Shown in pieces: positions 12,867 through 54,863 of a stretch of 60,704 nucleotides of DNA. Every line of letters begins with the position of its first letter. Position 1 is the first letter of the stretch. Below the pieces are notes generated by a model. That model did not search any database, was not told the DNA's origin, and saw only the letters and a list, made by a program, of their open reading frames with translations. The translations under genes and the position numbers were made by a program. This stretch comes from Patescibacteria group bacterium (GTDB lineage: Bacteria > Patescibacteriota > Microgenomatia > 2-02-FULL-39-11): contig JAMCUI010000015.1 in the NCBI GenBank assembly GCA_023379265.1, positions 1 through 60,704 of the forward strand, in the 5' to 3' direction.

Positions 12867-12893
12867 ATTTAATCCTTCGCCGAAATCTCCGGG
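12867..12893 (+). repeat. Dispersed intergenic motif, copy A (ATTTAATCCTTCGCcGAAATCTCCGGG)
   Basis: 26 of 27 nt identical to 27151-27177. Follows a small hairpin and T-run downstream of fusA. Confidence 0.7.
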
Positions 12894-13289
12894 CATAAGA
12901 GTGAGAGATGAATGCAAATTTATCGCTCAGGAGGAAGCCCCGGGCATAAGAGCGGGTAGCTTCATTTGTGAGAATATCAGAATAGAGAGTATAATAAAGA
13001 TAAGTTGTGATTGTAAGAAGGTTTCCGGTTATAAATTATGAAAAATAACAGGTTTAAATTTTTTTCTACAAGATCTGACAGGATTTCATATAAGAGAGAT
13101 AAGCGCCAATTCATTGAGATCAAGACACCCGTTAGTATCCTTAAGAATTTTAAAAACTCAGTATTTAACCGATTCTATAATAAAAAATCCGATGGAATCG
13201 ATTCTCCACAAAAAAGAGACAAATAATTAAAATAATTTCTTCAGTATAGATAAATTAATTATTAAATTCAAAATTGCAGTGAAATAAAT

Positions 13290-17886: not shown

Positions 17887-20475
17887 ATGCCTGGTTTTTT
17901 TATGAGTTCCGACAGAAAAGCTATCCGATTAAAAGATAACTTGATGCCAAAAGAACCCGATAAAGTCATATCCGGCTTATCCCAGAAAGAGGCTGCGGCG
18001 AGACTGGAAAAAGACGGATTCAACGAGCTTCCTTCCCAGAAGAGACAAAATATCTTCTCTATCTTTCTGCGTGTAATCTCCGAACCGATGCTGCTTCTTC
18101 TTATTGGAAGCGGTATGGTCTATCTTTTCCTGGGAGAAGTAAAGGATGCGCTGATGCTTCTGTCGTTCATTTTTGTGGTAATCGGTATCACTTTTTATCA
18201 GGAGAGAAAAACAGAGAGGACTCTTGAGGCTTTGAGAAATCTGTCCAGTCCAAGGGCTTTGGTCATAAGGGATGGTGAAAGGAAGAGAATTGCCGGCAGG
18301 GAAGTGGTAAAGGGGGATATTATACTTCTTCACGAGGGTGATCGTGTCCCGGCTGATAGTAGGATATTATCATGCGAAAATCTGTCGGTTGATGAGTCGC
18401 TTATTACTGGAGAATCGGTACCAGTCAGAAAATCTGAGGCGGATGGAAATCCAGTAAACCCGCGGCCGGGAGGAGACGATTTGCCTTTTGTTTTCTCAGG
18501 GTCCCTCATAGTAAGCGGAAGAGGTGTCGCTCAGGTAATTTCAACCGGAATCTATACGGAGATGGGGAAAATCGGCAAAGCCCTGGAAACAATAAAAGAA
18601 GAAGAAACCCTATTGAAGAAAGAAACCGACAGAATTGTCAAGATTGTCACTTTCATAGGTATATCTTTATGCATCTTTATCGTTGTGATCTATGCTTTAG
18701 CCAAAAACGACCTTCTTGGTGGTTTCCTGTCCGGTCTTGCCTTGAGTATGGCCATGCTGCCTGAGGAATTTCCAGTAGTGCTTATTATCTTTCTGACCCT
18801 TGGCGCCTGGAGGATATCAAAAAGAAGAGTATTGACCAGAAAACCGGCTGTGATTGAAACACTGGGTGCGGCTACAGTTCTCTGTGTTGATAAGACGGGT
18901 ACTCTGACTTTGAATAAAATGGAGCTGGCAGATATATTTTCCAACAATTCTCTTTATGAATTAAATGACTCTGGGATTCTTCCCGAAAAACACCACGATC
19001 TTATGGAATATGGAATTTTAGCCAGCCAACGAGATCCTTTTGATCCAATAGAAAAAGAGATTAAGAAAAAGGGAGAATTTTACCTGAAGAACACTGAACA
19101 CATTCATGGTAATTGGAATCTGGTAAAAGAATATCCTTTATCCAAAGAGCTTTTGGCTCTATCCCATGTCTGGCAGTCGCCCGATAAGGAAGATTTTGTG
19201 ATAGCTGCCAAAGGTGCGCCGGAAGCAGTTCTTGATCTATGTCATGCACGTAAATCTGAAAAGGCAAAGACACTGGGAACGGTAAGGGAAATGTCGGAAA
19301 AAGGATTGAGAGTCCTGGGAGTCGCAAAAGCATTTTTTACAGAATCAAGCCTCCCTAATAAACAGCATGATTATGACTTCGAATTTGTAGGGCTTTTGGG
19401 TTTTATTGATCCGATACGTCTGGCTGTACCGGAGGCTGTGAAGGAAGCATACAATGCCGGAATAAGGATAGTCATGATTACCGGAGACTATCCGGGCACT
19501 GCTACATTTGTAGCAAGAAAAATAGGGCTTTTGCATCCTGACGATCATATTACAGGAGACCAGTTGTCAAGACTTAACCATCAGGAGTTGAGGGAAAAGT
19601 TAAGACATATAAATATTTTTGCCAGAATAGTACCGGAGCAGAAATTGGCCATAGTAAATGCCCTCAAGGCAAACGGAGAGATTGTAGCTATGACCGGAGA
19701 CGGGGTAAATGATGCCCCGGCACTCAAATCAGCAAATATAGGTATAGCCATGGGGGAGAGAGGAACAGATGTGGCAAGGGAGGCGTCGTCTCTGGTCCTT
19801 CTCAATGATGATTTTTCATCAATTGTAGCAGCTGTGCGTTTGGGAAGAAGAATTTATGACAATCTCAAAAGAGCCATGGGCTATATTTTTGCGGTACATA
19901 TACCTATTGCAGGTATGTCTCTTCTTCCGGTAATATTTAATCTTCCGTCTGTACTTCTGCCGGCGCATATTGCTTTTCTGGAGCTTATAATCGATCCGGC
20001 TTGTTCAACAGTATTTGAATCGGAAAAAGAAGATGAGCATATAATGCAAAAGCCGCCAAGAAATCTTTATCAGCCGTTATTTAATAGAGGAATTATAAGT
20101 ATAAGTATCCTGCAGGGCATAAGTGTACTAGTTATGGTATTTCTTATATTTATTTATTCCCTTTTTATCGGCAAAAATGATGTCGAGGCAAGATCTGTTG
20201 CCTTTACCACTCTCGTATTTGCAAACCTGATGCTTATTGTGACCAATCTTTCCTGGACAAAGAATTTTTTCCAAATAATCTTATCGGCAAACAGGGCACT
20301 AATGATTGTTTCGGGATTTGCCCTTGTCTCCCTCTTTCTGGTCATTTATATGCCATTTTTGCGATCACTTTTCCATTTTACTTTTCTGCATACCGATGAC
20401 TTGATCCTTTCATTTGTGACTGCGGCAATAGCCATTCTGTGGTTTGAAATAATAAAAATTTTCAGGAAAATTTGA
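17887..20475 (+). CDS. Cation-transporting P-type ATPase (type II, Ca2+/Mn2+-like)
   Basis: DKTGTLT phosphorylation site, MITGD, GDGVNDAPAL, about 10 TM segments. The exact start is uncertain (17887, 17902 or 17944). Confidence 0.9.
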   Translation: MPGFFMSSDRKAIRLKDNLMPKEPDKVISGLSQKEAAARLEKDGFNELPSQKRQNIFSIFLRVISEPMLLLLIGSGMVYLFLGEVKDALMLLSFIFVVIGITFYQERKTERTLEALRNLSSPRALVIRDGERKRIAGREVVKGDIILLHEGDRVPADSRILSCENLSVDESLITGESVPVRKSEADGNPVNPRPGGDDLPFVFSGSLIVSGRGVAQVISTGIYTEMGKIGKALETIKEEETLLKKETDRIVKIVTFIGISLCIFIVVIYALAKNDLLGGFLSGLALSMAMLPEEFPVVLIIFLTLGAWRISKRRVLTRKPAVIETLGAATVLCVDKTGTLTLNKMELADIFSNNSLYELNDSGILPEKHHDLMEYGILASQRDPFDPIEKEIKKKGEFYLKNTEHIHGNWNLVKEYPLSKELLALSHVWQSPDKEDFVIAAKGAPEAVLDLCHARKSEKAKTLGTVREMSEKGLRVLGVAKAFFTESSLPNKQHDYDFEFVGLLGFIDPIRLAVPEAVKEAYNAGIRIVMITGDYPGTATFVARKIGLLHPDDHITGDQLSRLNHQELREKLRHINIFARIVPEQKLAIVNALKANGEIVAMTGDGVNDAPALKSANIGIAMGERGTDVAREASSLVLLNDDFSSIVAAVRLGRRIYDNLKRAMGYIFAVHIPIAGMSLLPVIFNLPSVLLPAHIAFLELIIDPACSTVFESEKEDEHIMQKPPRNLYQPLFNRGIISISILQGISVLVMVFLIFIYSLFIGKNDVEARSVAFTTLVFANLMLIVTNLSWTKNFFQIILSANRALMIVSGFALVSLFLVIYMPFLRSLFHFTFLHTDDLILSFVTAAIAILWFEIIKIFRKI

Positions 20476-40121: not shown

Positions 40122-40226
40122 GAATACGGGAAAAGGAATTTTTCTTGTCCCTTTCTACGGAACTTATACATTGAATACACGTGGCGTGAAGGTATAAATG
40201 CCCTACATAAATGCCCTTTCTACCTC

Positions 40227-40255
40227 TTGCACGGGAAAAAAGCTTAGTGTATAAT
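40227..40255 (+). promoter_or_regulatory. Sigma70-type promoter upstream of tuf
   Basis: TTGCAC, 17-nt spacer, TATAAT, 65 nt before the tuf ATG (SD TAAGGAGG). Confidence 0.55.
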
Positions 40256-40320
40256 TTCGCTACCCCAAATAATTTGGGAATATTTTTATTTTGTTATAAA
40301 CATCTAAGGAGGAAGTATTT

Positions 40321-41505
40321 ATGGCTACAGGAGTTTTTCAGAGAAGTAAACCCCATCTTAATATCGGGACTATCGGTCACGTTGATCACGGTAAGACTAC
40401 ACTGACTTCAGCAATTACACACGTGTTGGCCCAAAAAGGTATGGCCAAAGCTCTGAAATACGAAGAAATAGATAATGCTCCTGAAGAAAAAGCCAGAGGT
40501 GTCACAATAAATATCCACCACTCCGAGTATGAAACAGCCAAACGCCACTATGCACATATCGATGCCCCAGGACATGCAGATTACATAAAAAACATGATCA
40601 CTGGTGCAGCCCAAATGGATGGCGCCATTTTGGTGGTCTCTGCTCCTGATGGTCCGATGCCCCAGACAAGAGAGCACATACTTCTGGCACAACAGGTAAA
40701 CGTGCCGGCAATTGTCGTTTTTCTTAATAAGGTCGACATGGTATCGGATAAGGAACTTTTGGATCTGGTAGAGATGGAAATCAGAGAGCTTTTGACCAAA
40801 TACAAATTCCCGGGAGACAAAGTCAAAATTATAAGAGGCAGCGCCCTCAAGGCTCTGCAGGGAGACGCGGAAGCTATCAAGTCAATTGAGGCTCTAATGG
40901 ATGCGGTAGACAGCGAAATTCCCACACCGGTACGTGATACAGACAAACCGTTCCTTATGCCTATTGAGGATGTTTTCTCAATCAAGGGCCGAGGGACAGT
41001 CGTTACCGGCAGAGTGGAAAGAGGAAAGATAAAAGTCAACGAAGAAATAGAGATAGTCGGTATAAAGGCCACACAAAAGACAGTTATCACAGGGGTCGAA
41101 ATGTTCAGGAAAACTCTGGATGAAGCGATGGCCGGAGACAATGTCGGCCTTCTTCTAAGAGGTGTCGAGAAAAACCAGGTGGAGCGCGGACAGGTAGTAG
41201 CCAAGCCTGGCAGTATCACCCCTCATACAGAATTTGAGGCTGAGATTTATGTCCTGACGAAGGAAGAAGGAGGAAGGCATACGCCTTTCTTCACAGGATA
41301 CAGACCGCAGTTTTATGTAAAAACTACTGATATTACTGGCGAGATTACCCTTCCCAAGGGAGTGGAAATGGTGATGCCGGGAGACAGTATCAAGATGACG
41401 GCAAAACTCATCGTGCCTGTAGCTCTTGAGGAAGGCCAGAGATTTGCAGTAAGAGAAGGCGGACATACAGTAGGTGCGGGAGTAGTAACAAAAATACTAA
41501 AGTAA
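40321..41505 (+). CDS. tuf: Elongation factor Tu
   Basis: 394 aa with [17 protein letters not shown] and NKVD. Confidence 0.98.
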
Positions 41506-41583
41506 AGAGTTATTTGAAATTCCGCAGCTTCTAGCGGACATACAGTAGGTGCGGGAGTAGTAACAAAAATACTAAAGTAAAGA
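41459..41583 (+). repeat. Repeat-spacer-repeat: the 3' end of tuf (50 nt including the stop) repeated at +75 nt
   Basis: 41459-41508 is identical (50/50) to 41534-41583, with a 25-nt unique spacer. Confidence 0.9.
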
Positions 41584-41601
41584 AGTTTTAACAATAAGAA
41601 A

Positions 41602-41910
41602 ATGCCGAAGGGACGAATTCGCGTACGTTTAAAAGCTTATGATGGCAGAATCATTGATGATTCATGCCAGAAGATACTGGATACGGCCGTAAGGACCGGT
41701 GCCCGGGTGGTGGGACCAATACCTCTGCCGACGGAAAAACAGCATTTTTCCGTCCCAACATCCCCGTTTACCGATAAGGATAGCCGGAATGCGTTTATGG
41801 TGAAGATACATAAGCGCCTTATCGATATCATCGAGCCTACGGACAAGACTATTGACTCTTTAATGCATCTGGAACTGCCAGCAGGCGTGGACATAGAAGT
41901 AAAGATGTGA
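41602..41910 (+). CDS. rpsJ: 30S ribosomal protein S10
   Basis: 102 aa starting IRVRLKAYD; position after tuf. Confidence 0.95.
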
Positions 41911-42068
41911 AAGTAGAGTTGGACTTTGGGTCAAGAGGATTGTGTTGTAATTCAAGAGCAGGCGTGGACATAGAAGTAAAGATGTGAAAGTAGAGTTGGA
42001 CTTTGGGTCAAGAGGATTGTGTTGTAATTCAAGAGCAGGCGTGGACATAGAAGTAAAGATGTGAAAGT
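41880..42068 (+). repeat. 77-nt unit x 2.45 beginning 30 nt inside the 3' end of rpsJ
   Basis: 41881-41957 equals 41958-42034 (77/77). 42035-42068 repeats the first 34 nt. Each copy contains AGVDIEVKM plus TGA. Confidence 0.9.
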
Positions 42069-42096
42069 TCCAAAATGTCAGACGGGTTGATTTGGT

Positions 42097-42125
42097 TTGA
42101 TATATCAGACTTAAATCTGTATAAT
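42097..42125 (+). promoter_or_regulatory. Consensus sigma70 promoter inside the rpsJ-rplC spacer
   Basis: TTGATA, 17-nt spacer, TATAAT. Confidence 0.55.
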
Positions 42126-42193
42126 TGTAAAAGATCATGATGGTGAAAAAACACCGTTATAAAACAAAATAATCGGATGTTGCGGGATATTTA

Positions 42194-42219
42194 TAGCCCC
42201 TTATCCGGGGCTATTTTTT
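42194..42219 (+). terminator. Rho-independent terminator 19 nt upstream of rplC
   Basis: TAGCCCCttatccGGGGCTA followed by TTTTTT. Confidence 0.75.
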
Positions 42220-42238
42220 GTTTGAATGATAATAAATT

Positions 42239-42892
42239 ATGATACAAGCAATTTTAGGCATAAAAAAAGATCAGTCGCAGACTTTTACACCGGATGGGAA
42301 AAGAATCCCGGTGACACGCGTATCGACTGCTTCATGCCGGGTGGTAAACGTAAAAACTGAAGATAAAGACGGTTACAATGCTATCCAGCTTGGTATTGGT
42401 AGCAAAAGAGCCGTTACTCTCACTAAACCTGAATTGGGAAATTTGAAAAAGGCGGGGTTGGACAAAAATCCACCCCGTTTTTTGCGGGAAGTCAGCATAG
42501 AGAACAAAGAAGATTTTACCGATGAGAAACTCAAACCGGGTTCAGAAATAAAAACTTCTGACGTATTTAAGGAAGGTGATGTTATCCAGGTGACCGGTGT
42601 GACCAAAGGTAAAGGTTTTCAGGGAGCAGTAAAAAGACACCACTTCAAGGGAGGTCCCAGGACCCACGGACAGTCAGATCGCGAAAGGGCTCCCGGCTCA
42701 ATAGGCCAGACTACTACTCCGGGAAGAGTCTACCGCGGCAAAAGAATGGCAGGACATATGGGCAGCGATACAGTGACAGTCAAAAATCTGAAAGTAGTCA
42801 AAATTGATGATGAAAAAAACATATTGACAGTTTTGGGTGTGGTACCTGGTGGAAGAAATTCGCTGCTTGTTATTAAAAAGTTAACAAATTAA
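42239..42892 (+). CDS. rplC: 50S ribosomal protein L3
   Basis: 217 aa with GVTKGKGFQG; S10-operon order. Confidence 0.95.
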   Translation: MIQAILGIKKDQSQTFTPDGKRIPVTRVSTASCRVVNVKTEDKDGYNAIQLGIGSKRAVTLTKPELGNLKKAGLDKNPPRFLREVSIENKEDFTDEKLKPGSEIKTSDVFKEGDVIQVTGVTKGKGFQGAVKRHHFKGGPRTHGQSDRERAPGSIGQTTTPGRVYRGKRMAGHMGSDTVTVKNLKVVKIDDEKNILTVLGVVPGGRNSLLVIKKLTN

Positions 42893-42962
42893 TTAGGGGA
42901 AGATTAGAACAGGGGCAGCAAACTAAATCTGCAATTATCATTACCAAATTATAAGTACAAAT

Positions 42963-43841
42963 ATGCCAAGGGTAAAAAAAGATAAAGAGCAAATAGAGAC
43001 AAAGAAAGATCTGAAAATTGACGTATACAACCTGAGCGGAAAAGTGACTGGGAAAGCGGATCTGCCGGGTGAGTTTTTTGCGGCAAAGGTATCAATGCCT
43101 CTTATAAATCAGGCTATCCGTGTATATACCGCAAACCAGCGTGCAGGTACCCACGACACAAAAACCCGGACTTTTGTTATCGGTTCCACCAAAAAAATTT
43201 ACCGCCAGAAGGGTACAGGGCGTGCCAGACACGGGGATATCAAAGCCCCGATTTTTGTCGGTGGAGGAGTGGCTCACGGCCCAAAACCAAAAGACTATTC
43301 CCTTTCTTTGCCAAAAAAGATGAGACAAAACGTTTTTTGCGCATCACTCACTGACAAGTTCCAGAATGGGAAGCTAAAAGTAGTGACGGGATTGGCAGAG
43401 ATCGAGCCTAAGACAAAAAATGTCAACCTGATGCTCAAGAATTTGGGATACTTGGCTGACGATGGAGCACTTGGAAAAAGCGTCATATTGGTATTGCCTT
43501 CAGTCATGAGGAATGTGATTTTGGCCGGAAGGAATATCGAAAATCTCTCTGTTTCCCAAGTGGAAAATTTGAGCGCTTATGATGTAATGAGGGTGCAAGA
43601 AGTGCTTTTTATGAAAGAGTCTCTCAAGGTTTTGGATGACAGAAGCGCTTCAAAAGTTAAAGAAGACAAAAAGGGGAAAAAGGCAATAGAAATGGATTTG
43701 AGTCTCGGGACGGGAAAGCCGGAAGAAAAGAAGCCAAAAACGGTAACAGCAAAGAAAGCAAAAAAGGAAGAGAAGCCAGCCAAAAAGACTGTAAAGAAAG
43801 CAGTCAAAAAGGTAAATGGAAAATCAGCAAAAAAGAAATAA
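42963..43841 (+). CDS. rplD: 50S ribosomal protein L4 with an approximately 85-aa Lys-rich C-terminal extension
   Basis: L4 core (QKGTGRARHGDIKAPIFVGGGVAHGPKP) followed by a KKPKTVTAKKAKKEEKPAKK... tail. Confidence 0.93.
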   Translation: MPRVKKDKEQIETKKDLKIDVYNLSGKVTGKADLPGEFFAAKVSMPLINQAIRVYTANQRAGTHDTKTRTFVIGSTKKIYRQKGTGRARHGDIKAPIFVGGGVAHGPKPKDYSLSLPKKMRQNVFCASLTDKFQNGKLKVVTGLAEIEPKTKNVNLMLKNLGYLADDGALGKSVILVLPSVMRNVILAGRNIENLSVSQVENLSAYDVMRVQEVLFMKESLKVLDDRSASKVKEDKKGKKAIEMDLSLGTGKPEEKKPKTVTAKKAKKEEKPAKKTVKKAVKKVNGKSAKKK

Positions 43842-43854
43842 GTTGATATTTTAT

Positions 43855-44151
43855 ATGTCAGAAAACGTAATTATACGACCAATAATAACTGAAAAATCAT
43901 TGATAGACGCAAAAAACGGAATCTTTACATTTGCAGTGGAAGGGAAAGCGACAAAATTCCAGATAAAGAAAGCGATAGAGTCGATGTTTAGCGTCCATGT
44001 CAAATTGATCACAACCGTAAAGACTAAAGGTAAAAAAAGGACTGTAGGCAGGAAAAGGCTGACGGTATATAAGCCTGATTTGAAAAAAGCCAGAGTCAAA
44101 TTGGCAAAGGATGAGAAAATAGATTTGTTTGAAGTAGGAGAAGGAAAATGA
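43855..44151 (+). CDS. rplW: 50S ribosomal protein L23
   Basis: The ATG at 43855 gives [15 protein letters not shown]. Confidence 0.93.
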
Positions 44152-44921
44152 CAAGATTTAGAAATTTCATGGAACCGAAATCACTCATGAGTATATTACC
44201 GAAAAATTCCGGAAGGAATAATTCCGGGAAAATTACAGTGAGGCATCAGGGAGCGCGTGAGAAAAGGTATTACCGTGAGATTGATTTTAAGAGGGATAAA
44301 TTTGGGGTAGAGGGAAAAATCATTGCCTTTGATTATGACCCAAATAGGAATGTGGAGATAGCCCTGGTGCTTTACAAAGATGGAGAAAAAAGGTATATTT
44401 TGAAACCTCAGGGTTTGAAGGTGGGGGATATGGTGCTTTCCAAGCAGGATGCCGAGGCCAGATTGGGCAACAGTCTTTTTTTGGCAAATATACCTATTGG
44501 TACTTCTGTACACAATGTTGAACTAGCAGAGGGAAGGGGTGGGCAAATGGTAAGAGGCGCCGGAACTGCAGCAGTAGTCTTGGCAAAAGAAGGAAGTTTT
44601 GCCCACGTCAGGTTGCCTTCAGGTGAGATCAGGATGATAAAAGGCAACTGCTATGCCACAGTGGGACAGCTGGCAAACTCCGAATGGAAATCACAAATTA
44701 TTGGGAAGGCCGGAAGGAAAAGGCATATGGGGATAAGGCCACAAGTACGCGGAACAGCAATGAATCCCCGTTCTCATCCGCATGGTGGAGGAGAAGGTAG
44801 AAGCGGAGAGGGTCTCAAACAGCCCAAGACTCCATGGGGGAAGCCTGCAAGAGGTTTGAAAACCAGAAAACCGGGCAAGTTCAGCGATAAATATATATTA
44901 CAAAGGAGAAAGAAGAAATAA
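44148..44921 (+). CDS. rplB: 50S ribosomal protein L2
   Basis: [37 protein letters not shown] and [13 protein letters not shown]. Shorter N-terminus than E. coli L2. Confidence 0.95.
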
Positions 44922-44922
44922 T

Positions 44923-45207
44923 ATGAGCAGAAGCCTGAAGAAAGGTCCATACATAAACCAGAAATTGCTGAAAAAAGTAATCGTGATGAAAAATTCCGGG
45001 CGCGGCGAAGCAGTGAAGACTTGGGATAGGAGTTGCCAGATACCGCCTGAATTTGTCGGCCAGAAGCTGGCTGTTTATAACGGAAGGCATTTTATAGAAG
45101 TGTTTGTGACTGAGGCGATGGTCGGCCATAGGCTTGGAGAATTTGCGCCAACCCGCACATTTAGGGGACATGGACAAGTGACAAAGAGAGTTTTGGAGAA
45201 GACATAA
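44923..45207 (+). CDS. rpsS: 30S ribosomal protein S19
   Basis: [10 protein letters not shown]...[16 protein letters not shown]. Confidence 0.96.
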
Positions 45208-45210
45208 TCT

Positions 45211-45708
45211 ATGAATAACACGGTTTATATAAAATATTTGCGGATATCCTCCAAGAAAATGCGGGGATTGGCAAAAATAGTAGTAGGTATGCCGCCCAAA
45301 GTCGCTTTGGACAGGCTGTCTGTAGTCAGCGGAAAAGCCGGCAGAATGATGAGTCTGGTCGTAAAATCGGCCATGGCCAATGCGACCAACAATATGAAGC
45401 TAAACGCCGCAGACTTGCGTATCAAAAGGATAGAGGTTTTGGAAGGACCTGCATTCAAGCGCTGGCAACCGGTATCCAGGGGGATGGCGCACCAGATAAA
45501 AAAAAGAACTACGCATTTGAGAATAGAGCTTGAAGAGAAACAGGGTAAGACGCTTCCCGCAGCAGCAGGAAAGGATAATAAGCCGGTTCAGGAAAAGAAA
45601 AGAGTAGAAAAAGCAGAAGTAAAAGCGCTGCCACAAGAAAAAGAAAAGAATATGAAAAAAGAAGAAATTGTGACTGAAAGGAGAGAAAAAAGTGGGACAA
45701 AAAGTTAA
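45211..45708 (+). CDS. rplV: 50S ribosomal protein L22 with a Lys/Glu-rich C-terminal extension
   Basis: L22 core followed by about 50 extra residues; operon order. Confidence 0.9.
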   Translation: MNNTVYIKYLRISSKKMRGLAKIVVGMPPKVALDRLSVVSGKAGRMMSLVVKSAMANATNNMKLNAADLRIKRIEVLEGPAFKRWQPVSRGMAHQIKKRTTHLRIELEEKQGKTLPAAAGKDNKPVQEKKRVEKAEVKALPQEKEKNMKKEEIVTERREKSGTKS

Positions 45709-46351
45709 TCCTAAAGGTTTTAGAATAGGTCCTCTTTATAGTTGGGAGTCAAGATGGTTTGCCAACAAGAAGGATTATAAGAACTTTGTGGTGGAAGATG
45801 CCAAACTGCGCAAATCACTTCTTGCCAGGCTGCAGCCTGCAGGCATAGTGAAGGTGGAAATTGAAAGATCGATAAACAAGATCAATATTATCCTTAACGT
45901 GGTGCGTCCCGGAATGGTGATAGGTCGGGGCGGAAGCGGTATGGAAACGGTAAAAAAATTCATAATTGATACAATTTTTGCCCACAGGAGAAGCATAAAG
46001 CAAAATATCAAGAAAGCATCCCTCAAAGTGGATATTAGGGTAGAACCGGTAAAGGAGCCTTATCTTTCTTCATATTTTGTCGCTTCCCAAATTGCCGAAC
46101 AGTTGGCCAAAAGGCTCAATCATAAGAGGGCAGTGTCCATGGCGATGGAAAAAGTGAAGACTGCCGGTGCAAGAGGAGTAAAAATTGTCCTATCAGGAAG
46201 GATAGGCGGGGCGGAAATCTCAAGACGAGAAAGCTATAAGACTGGTACTATACCCTTGTCGACATTACGTGAGGATGTTGATTTTGCGGCTGTACCATCC
46301 CTGACTAAATCCGGTTACATAGGCGTGAAGGTCTGGATTTGCAAGTCATAA
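45692..46351 (+). CDS. rpsC: 30S ribosomal protein S3
   Basis: GTG start; MGQKVNPKGFRIG; KH domain. Confidence 0.95.
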   Translation: MGQKVNPKGFRIGPLYSWESRWFANKKDYKNFVVEDAKLRKSLLARLQPAGIVKVEIERSINKINIILNVVRPGMVIGRGGSGMETVKKFIIDTIFAHRRSIKQNIKKASLKVDIRVEPVKEPYLSSYFVASQIAEQLAKRLNHKRAVSMAMEKVKTAGARGVKIVLSGRIGGAEISRRESYKTGTIPLSTLREDVDFAAVPSLTKSGYIGVKVWICKS

Positions 46352-46378
46352 AAAAGCAAAAGATTCATTACTTATATT

Positions 46379-46786
46379 ATGTTAGTACCAAAAAGAGCAA
46401 AATACAGAAAACAGTTCCGGGGCACAATGGGAGGCCAATCGCTTCGGGGTAGTTACCTTTCTTTTGGCGAATACGGCCTAAAGGCTATGTCGGCCAGCTG
46501 GGTGTCATCCCGTCAGATAGAGGCTGGAAGGCGCGTTTTGACTAGATATACAGCAAAGGGAGGTCGTGTCTGGATCAGGATATTTCCTGATAAGCCAGTT
46601 TCTGACAAACCGCCAGAAGTAAGAATGGGAGGGGGCAAGGGAGATATAGTTGATTATGTAGCAGTGGTGCGGCCGGGAAGGATAATTTTTGAGATGGGGG
46701 GAATCCCTGAGGAATTGGCAAAAGAAGCCCTTGAGTCTGCTTCTAGTAAATTACCACTGAAGACAAAATTTCTGAAAAGGGACTAA
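46379..46786 (+). CDS. rplP: 50S ribosomal protein L16
   Basis: MLVPKRAKYRKQFRG... Confidence 0.96.
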   Translation: MLVPKRAKYRKQFRGTMGGQSLRGSYLSFGEYGLKAMSASWVSSRQIEAGRRVLTRYTAKGGRVWIRIFPDKPVSDKPPEVRMGGGKGDIVDYVAVVRPGRIIFEMGGIPEELAKEALESASSKLPLKTKFLKRD

Positions 46787-46790
46787 AAAT

Positions 46791-47003
46791 ATGAAAAAAA
46801 GTGTTTTTAAGGACTTGAGGAACAAATCGGATGAAGAACTGAAAAAGATGGTGGCTGATACCAAAAAGGAGCTTGTAAAGATTATGATCCAGCATAAATC
46901 AGGCAAACTCAAAGACGTCATGCTTTCCAGAAGAAAAAAGAAGGATATTGCCAGGATGTTAACAATTTTGCGTGAGAAAAAGATTACGCAGGAGAGAGCA
47001 TAA
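46791..47003 (+). CDS. rpmC: 50S ribosomal protein L29
   Basis: 70 aa; position between rplP and rpsQ; typical LRNKSDEEL helix. Confidence 0.9.
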   Translation: MKKSVFKDLRNKSDEELKKMVADTKKELVKIMIQHKSGKLKDVMLSRRKKKDIARMLTILREKKITQERA

Positions 47004-47007
47004 GTAT

Positions 47008-47280
47008 ATGAAAGCAGAAAAAGAAACAACCAGGAAGCATAAAATCACAAAAACGCTGAAAGGAAAAGTAGTGTCCAATAAAATGACCAGGACTATAGTG
47101 GTTGAAGTGGGCAGGCAAAGAGTGCACCCTCTTTACAAGAAAATCATGAGAAGATCCAAAAGATATAAGGTCGAGGGAGATGAAAAATCAGTAAATATAG
47201 GAGATATGGTAAAGATTGGTGCGGTGAGACCGATCTCAAAAGAAAAACATTTTCAGTTAATAGGTAAAGTAGGAAAATAA
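47008..47280 (+). CDS. rpsQ: 30S ribosomal protein S17
   Basis: ATG at 47008; [17 protein letters not shown]...HPLYKK. Confidence 0.93.
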
Positions 47281-47281
47281 T

Positions 47282-47656
47282 ATGATCCAACTTAGAAGCA
47301 TCGTAAATGTAGCAGACAACAGTGGAGCGCACAGGCTTTCTGTCATCCAGGTGATGGGGCACGGTAATAGGACTCTAGCTTACTTGGGGGATGTAGTAAA
47401 CTGTGTTGTAAAAAAAGCGGACCCTGAAGGTATGGTCAAGACCCATGAGAAAGTGAAAGCGGTAATTGTACGCTCCCGCAAAGAAAAAAGAAGGCTAGAC
47501 GGTTCATATATCAGGTTTGACGACAATGCGGTTGTGATAATTGACAATCCCAAGGATAAAAATCCCAAAGGTACCAGGATTTTTGGGCCAGTTGCCCGTG
47601 AGCTCAAGGACTTGGGTTTTGCCAAGATTGTTTCCATGGCCCAGGAGGTATATTGA
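47282..47656 (+). CDS. rplN: 50S ribosomal protein L14
   Basis: [16 protein letters not shown]... Confidence 0.96.
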
Positions 47657-47743
47657 CAAAAGTTGCGGGTAGAATTCAGATTTATTATTCTGACAATCTG
47701 TAATCTGATTCCGTAATTCAAGTTTATTAAAGCAACAAATCAT

Positions 47744-48049
47744 ATGAAACTGAAAAAAGGCGACGAAGTCATAATTACATCCGGAAAGGATAAGGGTAAA
47801 AAAGGCAAGATAGAGAAAGTATTTAGAAAAAGCAATACGGTACTTTTGCCGGGTTTGAATGTTTTTAAGAGACATATGAAAAAAAGGGACGAAAACAATC
47901 CCGGAGGGATAATAGATTTCCCCCGACCGGTAAAAGTGGCAAACGTGGCCCTTATCTGTCCCAAGTGCGGAAAGCCAACCAGAATAGGATATAAAGTCCA
48001 GGGAGATACCAAAAGCCGTATTTGCAGAAAATGTGATTCAATATTATAA
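47744..48049 (+). CDS. rplX: 50S ribosomal protein L24
   Basis: KKGDEVIITSGKDKGKKG KOW motif. Has a CPKCG...CRKC zinc-ribbon-like C-terminus. Confidence 0.93.
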   Translation: MKLKKGDEVIITSGKDKGKKGKIEKVFRKSNTVLLPGLNVFKRHMKKRDENNPGGIIDFPRPVKVANVALICPKCGKPTRIGYKVQGDTKSRICRKCDSIL

Positions 48050-48053
48050 TCTT

Positions 48054-48623
48054 ATGTCTAATCTTTTTAAGTATTATCAGGAAGAAGGAAGAAAAATTTT
48101 GGCCAAGGATTTGGGCATTGGGAATATCATGATGGTGCCCAAGCTGGTAAAGATTGTAGTCAATATCGGCCTTGGTGAGGCGCTGACAGACAAGAAGGTG
48201 CTTGAAGTGGCAGCAGGGCAATTGTCCCAGATTACTGGGCAAAAACCTTCCATAAGGCGTGCTAAACATGATATTTCCTCTTTCAAGTTGCGTCAGGGAG
48301 ATGCGGTAGGACTAAAAGTGACCCTTAGGGGAAGAATGATGTATGATTTTTGTGAGAAGCTGGTGAAGATAGTTTTACCAAGAATCAGGGATTTTCGGGG
48401 AGTGCCAGATACCGGTTTTGATAAGGAAGGCAATTTCACATTGGGATTATCCGAACAGATAGTATTTCCGGAGATAGAATACAGCCAGGTAGATAAGATA
48501 AGAGGACTGGAGATGACCTTTGTCATTTCCGGTAAAGGAAAGAAAGAAGCAAGGAGGCTTTTGGAGGTTTTGGGTATGCCGTTTAAGAAACCGGTTGCAG
48601 CAAAGAGGGCAGAAGGGAAATAA
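48054..48623 (+). CDS. rplE: 50S ribosomal protein L5
   Basis: ATG at 48054; [16 protein letters not shown]. Confidence 0.95.
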
Positions 48624-48640
48624 TAATTTTTTATAAAAAT

Positions 48641-48826
48641 ATGGCTAAAGTATCTGATATAGTCAAATTCAAGAAAAAACAGAAATTCAATGTACGCGCG
48701 CATAACCGCTGTCAGCTATGCGGAAGAAACAGGGGATATATGAGAAAATTCGGTTTATGCCGGCTTTGCTTCCGCGAGTTAGCCCTGAAAGGTGAATTGC
48801 CAGGAGTAGTAAAGGCTAGCTGGTGA
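48641..48826 (+). CDS. rpsN: 30S ribosomal protein S14, type Z (zinc-binding, 61 aa)
   Basis: [10 protein letters not shown]...CRLCFRE. Confidence 0.95.
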
Positions 48827-48994
48827 GGCGTAAGACAGACTTAATTCGTAGGTTTTGATGAGTGACGGAAACAGCGGGAGTAGTAAAGGCTAGCTGGTGA
48901 GGCGTAAGACAGACTTAATTCGTAGGTTTTGATGAGTGACGGAAACAGCGGGAGTAGTAAAGGCTAGCTGGTGAGGAGTAAGACAGACTTAATT
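48803..48994 (+). repeat. 74-nt unit x 2.6 beginning 24 nt inside the 3' end of rpsN
   Basis: 48803-48876 equals 48877-48950 (74/74). 48951-48994 repeats the first 44 nt with one mismatch (48977). Confidence 0.9.
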
Positions 48995-49010
48995 ATTGAA
49001 TAAAAAATAT

Positions 49011-49406
49011 ATGATGACTGATCCGATTTCAGATTTGCTGACACAGATAAAAAATGCCTATATGGCGGAAAAAAAGACGATTGAGGTATCCCACAGTAAT
49101 ATGCAGGAGTCTCTTGTAAAGCTTCTTTCCCGAGAAGGTTATCTGGGTAAAATTGAGATAAACAAAAAAGATAAAGTGAAAAAGACCATATCGGTAGAAA
49201 TGGTTTATGAGGATAAGAAACCCAGATTGACAGAGATAGTCCGTGTCAGCAAACCCAGCAAGAAAGTATATATCTCTAAAAATGAGATACCCAGAGTCTT
49301 GGGAGGGTTGGGGATTGTGGTCATATCCTCTCCTGCAGGTTTAATCTCTGGCAGGGAAGCAAGGAAAAAAGGTATAGGCGGAGAGTTAATCTGCAAAATT
49401 TGGTAA
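49011..49406 (+). CDS. rpsH: 30S ribosomal protein S8
   Basis: ATG at 49011; MMTDPISDLLTQIKNA...GGELICKIW. Confidence 0.95.
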   Translation: MMTDPISDLLTQIKNAYMAEKKTIEVSHSNMQESLVKLLSREGYLGKIEINKKDKVKKTISVEMVYEDKKPRLTEIVRVSKPSKKVYISKNEIPRVLGGLGIVVISSPAGLISGREARKKGIGGELICKIW

Positions 49407-49476
49407 GCCTTTTTAGAATTTAGATAAATACTGATGATAAAGAATAGACGGAAAGCTGATCTATAAGATTTGGTAA
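49374..49476 (+). repeat. Diverged second copy of the 3' end of rpsH at +70 nt
   Basis: 49374-49406 and 49444-49476 match at 26 of 33 positions with no gaps, and both end in TAA. The peptides are IGGELICKIW* and IDGKLIYKIW*. Confidence 0.8.
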
Positions 49477-49495: not shown

Positions 49496-50056
49496 ATGTC
49501 AAGAATAGGACAAAAACCCATTGCAAAGGAACAAGATGTCAAAGTAGAAGCGAGCGGCAGTGCCGTACACGTGGAAGGGTCAGCCGGAAAGATGGATTTG
49601 ACGTTGCCGGAAGGTTTTTCGCTCACTACAGGAGAAAAAGAATTACTTCTAAAGATCGAAAATGAAAGAATTGCCGACGGCAAAATTCATGGGCTTTTCC
49701 GCAGTCTTTTGCAAAATGCAGTGACAGGAGTAAAAAAGCCGTGGACCAAGACGCTGGAGCTTGTGGGAGTAGGTTATAGAGCACAGACAACTGGTAGCGA
49801 CCTGGTCCTGAATTTGGGTTTTTCCCACCCGATAAACATAAAAGCACCGGCAGGGATTACATTCCAAGTGACTGAAAACAAAGTGACTGTTTCCGGGGTA
49901 GATAAATATATGGTGGGAGAAATGGCGGCAAAAATAAGAAGGTTGAAACCACCCGAACCTTATAAGGGGAAAGGGATAAGATATACAGGTGAACATATAA
50001 GAAAGAAACTCGGTAAAGCTGCAAAGGCGGTTGGTGGGGCAGCAGGCGCAAAGTAA
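49496..50056 (+). CDS. rplF: 50S ribosomal protein L6
   Basis: ATG at 49496; MSRIGQKPI... Confidence 0.95.
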   Translation: MSRIGQKPIAKEQDVKVEASGSAVHVEGSAGKMDLTLPEGFSLTTGEKELLLKIENERIADGKIHGLFRSLLQNAVTGVKKPWTKTLELVGVGYRAQTTGSDLVLNLGFSHPINIKAPAGITFQVTENKVTVSGVDKYMVGEMAAKIRRLKPPEPYKGKGIRYTGEHIRKKLGKAAKAVGGAAGAK

Positions 50057-50131
50057 AAACTGTCTTAAGAGTCTCAAAAAAGCATTAAGTTTTAGCAACT
50101 GGAGCTAAATAAAAATTAAAGCAAATTGACC

Positions 50132-53420: not shown

Positions 53421-53957
53421 ATGAAATTCTCGGTCTTTGTCATTTCAGGAATGCCAGGTAGCGGTAAGACTGCCGCATCAGAATACTTCCAGAAAAGGCA
53501 TATTCCCGTAGTAAGAATGGGAGAATTGACTCAGGAAGAGCTTGTGAAAAGGAAGCTTGCAGCCGGCTGGGAAAATGAGAAATTTGTCTGGACAGATTTG
53601 AGGAAGACTGAGGGGAAAGATATTTATGCCAAACTGGCAGCCCAAAGGGTAACGGAGTTTGAGGCGAAGGGAAAAATAGTAATTGAGGGGATGAGGACCT
53701 TGGCTGAGTATGATTTTTTTGCCAATATGTTTCCGGGTTTTAAGACAATCTTTATTGAAGCCGGAAAGGAGAAGAGATATCAAAGGTTGCAGGAGAGGAG
53801 AGTCAGGCCATTGAGCACAAAAGAGGCAAGGCAAAGAGATGAAGATGAGGCAAAAGGTTTTGACTTGGTAAAACTTAGGGATAAAGCTGATTTTATAGTA
53901 GGAAATGACGGTTCGTTTGAAGAATTTTTTGAAAAACTCCGGAAAATTATTGACTGA
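53421..53957 (+). CDS. Second P-loop nucleotide kinase-like protein (archaeal UPF0200-like)
   Basis: The ATG at 53421 gives MKFSVFVISGMPGSGKTAASEYF...VVRMGE. Lies between adk and map. Confidence 0.65.
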   Translation: MKFSVFVISGMPGSGKTAASEYFQKRHIPVVRMGELTQEELVKRKLAAGWENEKFVWTDLRKTEGKDIYAKLAAQRVTEFEAKGKIVIEGMRTLAEYDFFANMFPGFKTIFIEAGKEKRYQRLQERRVRPLSTKEARQRDEDEAKGFDLVKLRDKADFIVGNDGSFEEFFEKLRKIID

Positions 53958-54035
53958 TTTTATATGATACATCTGAAAAAACCTGAAGAAATGGAAACTT
54001 TACCAAATCGAAAATTATAGACGGTAAAGACAAAT

Positions 54036-54863
54036 ATGATTCATTTAAAAACAGTTGAAGAGATAGAAAAAATGAAAAAAGGAGGCAAGATCCTCCATGA
54101 CGTGCTGGGGATTTTGGTAAAGGAAGCCAAACTGGGAGTCTCACTGATATCACTTGACCAAATGGCAGAAAGGCTCATCGTGGAGAGGGGTGGGACATCA
54201 TCTTTTAAGCGGGTAAAAGGTTACCACTGGACTATCTGCAGTTGTGTCAATGATGTGGTGGTACACGGTATTCCCGATGAGTACAAGATAAAGACTGGTG
54301 ATATTGTCGGTATAGACTGCGGGGTATATTTTGAAGGTTTCCATACGGATGCGGCCTGGACGGTATCAGTGGGGAACAGCGACAGTAAAGTGAAAAAATT
54401 TCTGGATACTGGGGAGGCAGCCTTCAGGAAGGCAATAAGCCAGGTAAAATTGGGAAATTACATTTATGACATATCAAAAGCCATACAGGATACTGTGGAG
54501 AAAGAAGGCGGGTATGGAGTATCAAGGACTCTTGTCGGACACGGGGTGGGGAGGCAGCTTCACGAGGAGCCGGAGGTGCCGGGTTATGTCAGTAGTCCCA
54601 GTACCTCATTCCATAAATTTAACCGTATGGACAATCTTCGAGAAGAGGACGAAAAATTAAGGGAACAAAGTATTAGGGAGTCTACGCCAAGGCTGGTTCC
54701 GGGCCTAGTGATTGCCATTGAGGTGATTTATAATATGGGAAGTCCGGACGTGGTTTACAAGGGAAATGACGGGTGGACAATTGTCACGAAAGATGGTAAA
54801 ATATCAGGACTCTTTGAAGCGACCGTGGCGGTAACTTCCCACGGTTGCGTTGTTTTGACTTAG
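54036..54863 (+). CDS. map: Methionine aminopeptidase type I with an approximately 27-aa insertion
   Basis: Metal ligands in GIDCGVYFEGFHTD, VGHGVGRQLHEEP and IAIE. Extra segment SSPSTSFHKFNRMDNLREEDEKLREQSIRESTPR. Confidence 0.9.
   Translation: MIHLKTVEEIEKMKKGGKILHDVLGILVKEAKLGVSLISLDQMAERLIVERGGTSSFKRVKGYHWTICSCVNDVVVHGIPDEYKIKTGDIVGIDCGVYFEGFHTDAAWTVSVGNSDSKVKKFLDTGEAAFRKAISQVKLGNYIYDISKAIQDTVEKEGGYGVSRTLVGHGVGRQLHEEPEVPGYVSSPSTSFHKFNRMDNLREEDEKLREQSIRESTPRLVPGLVIAIEVIYNMGSPDVVYKGNDGWTIVTKDGKISGLFEATVAVTSHGCVVLT

Follow-up and report, generated by a model that had tools for sequence, protein, structure and literature searches.

Contig JAMCUI010000015.1 of assembly GCA_023379265.1, a stretch of 60,704 nt that we call the window, comes from an uncultured Candidatus Gottesmanbacteria (Microgenomates, candidate phyla radiation or CPR). 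In its ribosomal protein cluster, the 3' ends of tuf, rpsJ, rpsN and rpsH, stop codon included, recur 75, 77, 74 and 70 nt downstream, respectively, as an earlier reading made from the sequence alone (the original prediction) had claimed. Our analysis suggests that these arrays are strain-variable tandem reiterations of gene-boundary segments of about 56 to 77 nt, produced by short-patch illegitimate recombination and then by unequal crossing-over, a reading to which we give a probability of roughly 0.6. The source DNA was probably homologous DNA taken up by the cell. The original prediction recognised no described element type in the arrays, which was fair, and the underlying process (microhomology-mediated short-patch illegitimate recombination, then unequal crossing-over) is a known one. 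Our literature searches turned up no account of ribosomal operons in which gene ends are reiterated.

Reiterated gene ends in the tuf-S10-spc cluster

The window is 99.5% identical to contig JAMDBJ010000003.1 of GCA_023487465.1 and about 93% identical to GCA_964520615.1 (L005), which was assembled independently in a separate project. Comparisons between strains used three 99.5% relatives (L001, L002 and L003) and L005, the relative at 93% average nucleotide identity (ANI). Genes were identified from the Pfam families of the 99.5% orthologues together with open reading frame (ORF) calls, tuf being recognised by Pfam GTP_EFTU on its 99.5% orthologue. The rpoB-rpoC-rpsL-rpsG-fusA genes occupy 2.3-12.7 kb of the window, and the tuf-S10-spc-secY-adk-map-infA-alpha cluster runs from 40.3 kb on. 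Each gene end was compared with the 250 nt downstream of it, for 3097 ORFs from the window and about 170 related loci, with reversed sequence as the control (null maximum 15.5-16.5), and a second scan was made at the protein level (null maximum 23). Metagenome loci from the Joint Genome Institute, in which the nearest uL5 was only 66% identical, served as controls only.

All four arrays were present (Table 1). The tuf array has a period of 75 nt, and its spacer was not present in L001, L002 or L005. The rpsJ array has a period of 77 nt, with blocks of 35 nt that are identical in all copies (35/35) and spacers of 42 nt. The rpsN array has a period of 74 nt, with blocks of 44 nt and spacers of 30 nt, and its last block carries a C>A substitution at 48977. 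Tandem Repeats Finder reported 2.5 copies for rpsJ, at 100% identity, and 2.6 copies for rpsN, with 99-100% identity over the two arrays and the units lying head to tail. The rpsH array has a period of 70 nt. The scores of the gene-end scan were 48 for tuf, 36 for rpsJ and 15.5 for rpsH, which taken alone is borderline on the reversed-sequence control; it is backed by its counterpart in L005, which scores 29.5, and by the protein-level scan, in which it scores 37 against a null maximum of 23.

The genes flanking the reiterations are intact under code 11, as the original prediction had stated, and on the same ground an alternative genetic code with TGA as a sense codon was ruled out. Its statement that the spacers are unrelated to each other was also borne out, since only 1 of 28 pairs reached p<0.05 when the eight junction spacers were aligned locally all against all, which is the chance level. 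The stop codons of rpsJ (41908-41910) and rpsN (48824-48826) are TGA in this lineage (ATGTGA and TGGTGA, respectively) and TAA in most outgroups; GTGA start-stop overlaps are therefore found at every rpsJ and rpsN unit.

Table 1. Positions of the reiterated gene boundaries in the window (E, gene-end block; S, spacer)
Feature	Position	Strand	Description
tuf working 3' end block E1	41459..41508	+	44 coding nt, TAA 41503-41505, 3 nt beyond
tuf spacer	41509..41533	+	25 nt; without detectable source; weak pairing with E2 (fold z = -2.1)
tuf pseudo-end E2	41534..41583	+	matches E1 at 50/50 nt; the native tuf-rpsJ spacer comes next
rpsJ array	41880..42068	+	E 41880-41914, S 41915-41956, E 41957-41991, S 41992-42033, E 42034-42068
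rpsN array	48803..48994	+	E 48803-48846, S 48847-48876, E 48877-48920, S 48921-48950, E 48951-48994
rpsH working 3' end E1	49377..49406	+	GGELICKIW and stop
rpsH spacer	49407..49446	+	weak collinear similarity to native rpsH-rplF spacer and rplF start; joint at shared ATAGG
rpsH pseudo-end E2	49447..49476	+	DGKLIYKIW and stop; 23/30 identical to E1; in all three genomes
rplF working 3' end	50039..50059	+	AAGAK and stop, plus AAA
rplF decayed pseudo-end	50095..50115	+	GCAACTGGAGCTAAATAAAAA; 56 nt downstream of working end
kinase-map unit, copy 1	53942..54009	+	working kinase end (KIID and stop, TGA 53955-53957), short spacer, map pseudo-start
map pseudo-start ORF	53964-54020	+	MIHLKKPEEMETLPNRKL and stop
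kinase-map unit, copy 2	54010..54083	+	kinase pseudo-end (GAAAATTATAGACGGT), spacer, working map start 54036

Further reiterations and their distribution

The scans brought out further cases in the same cluster (Table 1). The rplF end is followed by a decayed pseudo-end in the window, and L005 keeps a well-preserved, near-identical rplF pair. Between the kinase gene and map, the gene end, the spacer and the gene start are recognisable in both copies of the unit (score 30 against a null maximum of 22), and the map pseudo-start reads MIHLKKPEEME, to be compared with MIHLKTVEEIE at the working start. L005 has a pair of rplC ends 68 nt apart and a duplicated adk start with a period of 73 nt. Contrary to what had been claimed, the repeated piece is thus not always a 3' end, since the 5' start of the downstream gene is repeated at kinase-map and, in L005, at secY-adk. 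The periods are 56, 68, 70, 72, 73, 74, 75 and 77 nt, with one of 112 nt in L045, a Chisholmbacteria metagenome-assembled genome (MAG).

Two length differences were seen at these loci. The map gene has a 75-nt in-frame insertion at 54600-54674 (275 aa, 250 aa in L005) that encodes STSFHKFNRMDNLREEDEKLREQSI; it is in the size class of the junction repeats, yet it is not obviously a copy of nearby sequence. In L005, a 113-nt insertion with a hairpin (GTTCCGTTAATTTTGCTACCCGGAAC) lies in the rplF spacer at 11363-11475 and may be a small inserted element.

The gaps of at least 70 nt in the operon number seven. The original prediction had the four arrays in exactly the four unusually long gaps of the operon, which does not hold, because the rplC-rplD (70 nt), rplN-rplX (87 nt), rplF-rplR (75 nt) and kinase-map (78 nt) gaps are long as well. 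The rplN-rplX gap (47657-47743) and the rplC-rplD gap (42893-42962) are without a recognisable pseudo-end in the window; the rplC-rplD gap of L005 carries a displaced rplC end. The corresponding junctions of outgroups are tight, mostly 1-7 nt for rpsN-rpsH and mostly 6-11 nt for rpsH-rplF.

The scan of relatives for gene-end reiterations, which had been proposed as a check, showed that they are rare. Among about 175 loci and the 3097 ORFs, strong cases are confined to the window, L001 and L005. The other Microgenomates loci, about 165 in number, gave weak or single cases only, the clearest being the rpsJ pseudo-end of L045, 112 nt downstream of the working end. The nearest S8 relatives (63% identity) have no arrays. 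In the window outside 40-54 kb, the DNA-level and protein-level scans found no clear case among about 40 upstream genes, rpoBC-rpsLG-fusA included.

Copy number and concerted evolution

Comparison of the orthologous intergenic regions of L001, L002, L003 and L005 showed that the copy number is strain-variable. For the tuf end, the window has two copies, and L001, L002, L003 and L005 have one each. The rpsJ end is present in three copies in the window as assembled, in a single copy in L001, L002 and L003 and in two copies, with a diverged spacer, in L005. The rpsN end is present in three copies in the window as assembled and in two copies in L001, L002, L003 and L005, and the rpsH end in two copies in all five.

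Lineage-specific substitutions are common to all the copies of a genome. The rpsJ copies read AGCAGG in the window and AGCGGG in L005, the rpsN copies read GTAGTAAAGGCTAG in the window and GTGGTAAAGGCAAG in L005, and GAGATG occurs in both L001 copies at a place that reads GAGGCG or GAGGAG in the window. It follows that unequal crossing-over or gene conversion still goes on, at a rate above that of strain divergence, so that the identity of the blocks is uninformative on the age of an array. In their head-to-tail units, copy-number polymorphism and concerted evolution of copies, all of which are seen here, the arrays are like minisatellites, or variable-number tandem repeats (VNTRs).

Joints, spacers and divergence between copies

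The joints lie in GC-rich Gly/Ala codons at five of six loci, and AGCRG is found within 6 nt of the joint at five of six, a motif that was chosen post hoc. A Chi-like role of this motif was tried and rejected, as it is accounted for by in-frame Ala/Gly codons. The same holds for the G(G/A)CGGA-like string that the original prediction had noted at the 5' edge of the blocks; the string is present, but it is there because the block edges lie in GC-rich Gly/Ala codons. Of the 13-mer said to be shared by the tuf block and the rpsN junction, 10 of the 13 nt are native rpsN sequence, and the best reading of the TGATGA ahead of the rpsN pseudo-end makes it a remnant of ATGATGACTGAT, the start of rpsH.

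Several joints coincide with short microhomologies. At rpsH, the joint falls at ATAGG, which is common to rplF codons 4-5 and to the sequence just 5' of the rpsH block, and the spacer is collinear with the native spacer and the rplF start (strings ATTTAGATAAATACTGATGATAAAGAATAG and ATTTGTATAAAAATATGTCAAGAATAG; p 0.03-0.09 in two genomes). At rplC of L005, CAGG marks the joint, and GGAGCAGCAGG persists in the spacer where the native sequence is GGGCAGCAGG. The joints of the duplicated adk start of L005 are at TTGT and AAG. The rpsN spacer holds TGATGAGTGA, which resembles the rpsH start. A reading of the spacers as decayed native downstream sequence thus has weak support at rpsH, rpsN and rplC. 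Collapse of a second gene copy, another candidate source for the spacers, holds in L045 only.

The differences between working and displaced ends are largely of the coding type. At rplC of L005, the two ends differ at 11-12 of 30 nt, with only three amino-acid differences and with the stop codon still a stop. Since the displaced end shares 93% identity with the working end and spacer of the window, it is the ancestral one, and the working end of L005 is the newcomer. At rpsJ of L045, the working and displaced copies have six nucleotide differences and no amino-acid difference, the displaced copy lying in a collapsed mini-S10 ORF, and the working end of the distant relative L142 matches the displaced copy better than it matches the working copy of L045. 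In this MAG (6051-6166), the working rpsJ is followed by two short ORFs through GTGA and ATGA overlaps, and the second is a collapsed S10 (MSRVRIVLKRRMGRAFGAGVGIEIKM and stop) that looks like what is left of another copy of rpsJ, perhaps after gene displacement in situ.

We compared these differences with an in-situ model, in which the pseudo-copy takes 80% of the differences, at random positions, and the working copy takes the others as synonymous changes. The probabilities under this model were 0.0015 for rplC (L005), 5e-5 for rpsJ (L045), 0.033 for map (window), 0.033 for rplF (window) and 0.12 for rpsH (window). The combined probability was 1.9e-7 for all five and 0.006 for the window loci only. 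Judged from these sequence comparisons, coding-type divergence favours a diverged homologous donor over duplication in place.

Proposed origin of the arrays

The reading that we prefer can be set out in three steps. In the first, short single-stranded DNA (ssDNA) carrying a gene end and the sequence that follows it would have been built in out of register. The donor would most likely have been the homologous DNA of relatives, acquired by uptake, and sometimes the cell's own DNA. One end of the strand would have paired in register in the last codons and the other at a few GC-rich bases, usually Gly/Ala codons, slightly upstream, by short-patch or homology-facilitated illegitimate recombination or by template switching. 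In the second step, the only survivors would have been cells whose reading frame was complete and kept its correct C-terminus and stop, or its correct start. As these genes are essential and lie close together, the outcome would always be a gene end, a spacer and a further copy of that end, or the reverse arrangement where a gene starts. In the third step, which the strain comparison shows, identical blocks about 75 nt apart allow unequal crossing-over to add or remove units, gene conversion homogenises the copies and the spacer drifts.

These steps would also explain the preference for gene ends. An insertion in the last codons would be lethal unless the C-terminus and the stop were restored, and only homologous gene-end DNA could do this; a conserved operon would moreover offer homeologous DNA the best short homologies for annealing. 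The surrogate-end architecture may thus reflect which events survive and not where they are targeted. CPR bacteria rely on taking up DNA, and their repertoire of repair functions is reduced. The original prediction listed four explanations and favoured none of them; repeated patch recombination with foreign alleles came closest to the evidence, in that the differences are mainly synonymous. No diverged flanking patch was seen at the window tuf or rpsJ arrays, however, so that the tracts would have to be very short.

The closest described process is SPDIR, the short-patch double illegitimate recombination of Acinetobacter baylyi, which produces microindels of 3 to about 100 bp (10.1101/2023.11.22.568220). 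Its joints are short, GC-rich or interrupted microhomologies, its donor is ssDNA of the cell itself or taken up, and its rate rises with natural transformation and with RecA, DprA or exonuclease defects (10.1101/2023.11.22.568220). The arrays are like its products in tract size and in their microhomology joints. However, SPDIR was defined by selection experiments in A. baylyi, at about 1e-12 per locus, whereas the evidence here is comparative and the donor is deduced only from coding-type divergence. The events here also gather, unlike those of SPDIR, at the gene boundaries of one conserved cluster as tandem reiterations that later amplify, and their narrow size range of 56-77 nt is not among its described features.

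Xenologous gene displacement in situ is known from conserved operons, where a homologue is inserted beside the resident gene and one copy is then lost. The collapsed S10 that follows the working rpsJ of L045 is like such a case in that it keeps N- and C-terminal codons and shows synonymous-type divergence. The lineage of the window differs from it, as only the last 7-16 codons are duplicated and the working ends are not detectably foreign.

Several results weigh against short-patch recombination with foreign DNA. The tuf, rpsJ and rplF spacers showed no significant similarity to native downstream sequence (p = 0.46-0.96) or to any other sequence compared. No source for the spacers, which include the strings GTTATTTGAAATTCCGCAGCTTCTA and AGAGTTGGACTTTGGGTCAAGAGGATTGTGTTGTAATTCAAG, turned up in 176 loci, in viral contigs or, with up to 3 mismatches allowed, in the window itself; nor was a donor genome found among the 176 loci and the viral contigs. 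The two tuf blocks are identical, their spacer cannot be aligned and the array is absent in a 99.5% relative, which requires either rapid homogenisation after import or the repeated loss of an old array. Single-nucleotide differences between the window and its 99.5% relative are evenly spread, with no diverged flank at the window tuf or rpsJ arrays, and in L005 the sequence upstream of the new rplC end is not diverged either; the imported tracts would therefore have been only about 55-75 nt long. The narrow spread of the periods (56, 68, 70 and 72-77 nt) is not predicted by the model, and the strongest evidence for foreign alleles comes from relatives (L005 and L045) and not from the four loci of the window.

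Possible duplication in place

Purely in-situ tandem duplication, by slippage or unequal sister exchange at microhomology and with neutral decay of the copies thereafter, would need no foreign DNA. The kinase-map unit, which was duplicated whole, fits this well, as do the microhomologies at the joints (ATAGG, CAGG, TTGT and AAG) and the resemblance of the rpsH and rpsN spacers to the start of the next gene. The identity of the tuf, rpsJ and rpsN blocks and the presence of more than two copies are typical of local amplification. At rpsH, with L005 as the reference, three of five changes in the window pseudo-end are non-synonymous while all four in the working end are synonymous, as expected of decay in place. 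However, the coding-type divergence taken over the five loci rejects the expectation from neutral decay, and the newcomer rplC end of L005 cannot have diverged in place since the split, given its 11-12 differences from a displaced end that has remained window-like. In a fresh tuf duplication, moreover, the spacer should match the native 25 nt downstream exactly, which is not the case. We therefore consider duplication in place rather unlikely as the whole explanation.

Short-ORF relays and possible translational coupling

In the window and in L001, short ORFs linked by GTGA stop-start overlaps form an unbroken chain from rpsN to rpsH. The arrays might accordingly be selected intercistronic modules, in which short ORFs that overlap the preceding stop (GTGA or ATGA) hand ribosomes on or tune translational coupling, in the manner of the MIRUs (mycobacterial interspersed repetitive units). 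Besides this complete relay, the overlaps at every rpsJ and rpsN unit speak for such modules, together with periods (77 and 74 nt, both 2 modulo 3) that keep the relay in frame. L045 has the comparable order rpsJ, GTGA, ORF, ATGA, mini-S10. The map pseudo-start ORF is kept between the window and L005, with three of four substitutions synonymous and a 3-nt indel in frame, and coding-type conservation of the pseudo-copies would also be expected if they were translated and selected.

The relay did no better than shuffled controls, however, as 14-21% of shuffled spacers also gave a complete one. It is missing at tuf, rpsH, rplF and the rpsN array of L005, and the peptides of the rpsN mini-ORFs are not conserved between the window and L005. 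The gain and loss of arrays between 99.5%-identical strains speaks against a needed function. Since pseudo-ends and pseudo-starts bring stops and starts with them automatically, such ORFs are expected by-products of the copying, and we treat the relay as one. Selection for intercistronic modules, ribosome-relay mini-ORFs included, is in our view quite improbable.

The units of MIRUs are about 50-77 bp long. MIRU-VNTRs lie between the cistrons of operons, vary in copy number between strains and have short ORFs coupled by overlapping stop and start codons (PMC12548453). The arrays are like them in their intercistronic site, in a unit of tens of bases and in strain-variable copies (one, two or three here). 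MIRUs, however, belong to a single dispersed family, regarded as mobile and as inserting at start codons, whereas each array here is built from its own gene end, the spacers share nothing between loci and the ORF relay is not above chance. The arrays thus lack the defining trait of MIRUs, membership of one dispersed family.

A distinctly unlikely variant is an active, length-gauged process of this lineage that has kept writing gene-boundary cassettes of about 70-77 nt into the most conserved operon, some of the mini-ORF relays being co-opted for coupling. Candidates for it are ssDNA of a set size from uptake or salvage machinery, or a template jump across one stretch wrapped by single-stranded DNA-binding protein. 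If true, cassette writing with relay co-option would be a locally generated analogue of MIRUs.

RNA-level signals

The original prediction had also offered a functional RNA-level module, and this was unsupported. The arrays gave no Rfam match at the gathering threshold, no tRNA match with ARAGORN and no promoter-like or terminator-like site. The fold z-score was -0.94 for the tuf array and lay between +0.21 and +0.66 for the other three (rpsJ, rpsN and rpsH). A single tuf unit reached z = -2.1, with three of 200 shuffles folding as well, which is marginal. A structured cis-regulatory RNA, such as a ribosomal-protein leader or an attenuator, was rejected on the same results, given that no stable structure was seen beyond this marginal tuf unit.

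A conserved module lies between rpsJ and rplC in all the Microgenomates loci examined (42097-42214 in the window; L007-L015, L088 and L089). In the window it comprises a near-consensus native promoter (TTGATA-17-TATAAT, 42097-42125) and a terminator (42193-42214), which are the sole strong signals and lie downstream of the rpsJ array. Its leader has ATCATGA..GGTG and CGGAT(G/T)TTGGG, and it ends in a terminator-like hairpin ATAGCCCCTTATCCGGGGCTAT with a T-run. It gave no Rfam match at the gathering threshold, and it looks like an S10-type leader or attenuator sited before rplC instead of rpsJ.

Possible mobile elements and site-specific enzymes

Displaced gene ends are a known feature of the attachment sites of integrated elements, as in tRNA and tmRNA islands or in icd of Escherichia coli with e14 and phage 21. 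The original prediction had proposed the footprints of such an element with a surrogate end, and a wider form of the idea takes in an integrase island, a homing endonuclease cassette or off-target CRISPR adaptation (clustered regularly interspaced short palindromic repeats), most of the element having since been deleted. In two relatives (L005 rplC and L045 rpsJ) it is the working end, upstream, that is new, while the displaced end downstream is ancestral, with mostly synonymous differences; this resembles the attL/attR layout of surrogate-end islands. The repeat-spacer-repeat layout and the near-constant period of 70-77 nt resemble a CRISPR unit.

There is no recombinase, integrase, Cas or endonuclease gene in the Pfam-annotated neighbouring loci, and the arrays have no att-like common core, no common spacer motif beyond the Gly/Ala codons and no viral match. 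In the window only 25-42 nt separate the copies (23-85 nt over all cases), with no element body. Unlike at attachment sites, gene starts are affected too, the window tuf, rpsJ and rpsN copies are identical, and rpsJ and rpsN have been amplified to three. A CRISPR-like array was rejected because the block lengths (21, 30, 35, 44 and 50 nt) are inconstant, with spacers of 25-42 nt, and no cas gene occurs in the annotated neighbourhoods. Template and variable repeats of the diversity-generating retroelement type were rejected as well, the differences not being adenine-specific. That four to nine elements should have decayed independently to the same remnant of about 40 nt is implausible, and we hold a site-specific element or enzyme to be very improbable.

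The repeats in independent assemblies

The suspicion of a systematic assembly artefact, also raised by the original prediction, was examined in Logan contigs (k=31 assemblies) of SRR10278331, SRR10252151, SRR10267473 and SRR10244963. Contigs from all four runs end or begin inside the rpsN block, and in SRR10278331 contig L168 also begins inside rpsJ block E. The breaks sit at exactly the base of the first difference between copies, where they are expected at k=31. Contig L166 opens with four bases, the last ones of the spacer, followed directly by the third rpsN block; its start position implies a spacer-to-block joint with both variant bases in SRR10278331. The exact copy number at rpsJ and rpsN (three rather than two) is that of the assembly, and a de Bruijn graph alone cannot fix the copy number of a tandem repeat longer than k.

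Absence of the pattern from every independently assembled relative had been named as grounds for abandoning it, and in L005 homologous arrays, their spacers diverged, are present at rpsJ, rpsN and rpsH. Other MAGs do contain genuine scaffolding artefacts: at L012 11130-11345, L069 2439-2654 and L084 12528-12760, runs of N lie between identical duplicates of 52-61 nt. These look unlike the window repeats, which have no such gaps. An assembly or library artefact was rejected as hardly credible, even though the periods are near common k-mer and read sizes and the copies are perfectly identical at three loci, because the same arrays occur with substitutions and indels in the independent assembly of the 93%-ANI organism, the rpsH, rplF and map cases are diverged copies common to three genomes, and the Logan contigs break as expected, one of them holding the joint.

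Significance

We classify the arrays as natural products of a known process, short-patch illegitimate recombination at gene boundaries followed by unequal crossing-over, and the finding reveals no new element class or regulatory system; there is only a slim chance that a dedicated system or a selected translational device is hidden in them. If this reading is true, the arrays record how short-patch illegitimate recombination has acted in nature, probably on DNA that the cell took up, in the most conserved genes of a CPR bacterium. Such a record would be visible only because essential genes filter out the events that do not rebuild a complete gene end. Conserved operons could then gain foreign gene termini and longer intergenic spacers without loss of function.

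The arrays provide strain-level VNTR markers for an uncultured lineage. They are also a warning to annotators and assemblers, as contig breaks and "extra" gene ends in the ribosomal operons of such MAGs can be real.

Other observations

The gap between the PMT_2 glycosyltransferase gene and tuf (40122-40320) is rich in indels, with a 13-nt indel relative to L001 and insertions of 17-57 nt in L005. It may hold a decayed PMT_2 pseudo-end about 122 nt past the stop, where IYNIALPES resembles VYNFATPNN (score 27 against a null maximum of 23). The 294-nt gap that follows fusA holds, at 12867-12952, two imperfect direct repeats (CCGGGCATAAGAG) spaced 51 nt apart; they do not derive from the fusA end. 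Finally, L051 (CAYHHA010000014.1), an unrelated Microgenomates MAG, has a perfect 113-nt tandem duplication at 18879-19116 that includes a gene start.

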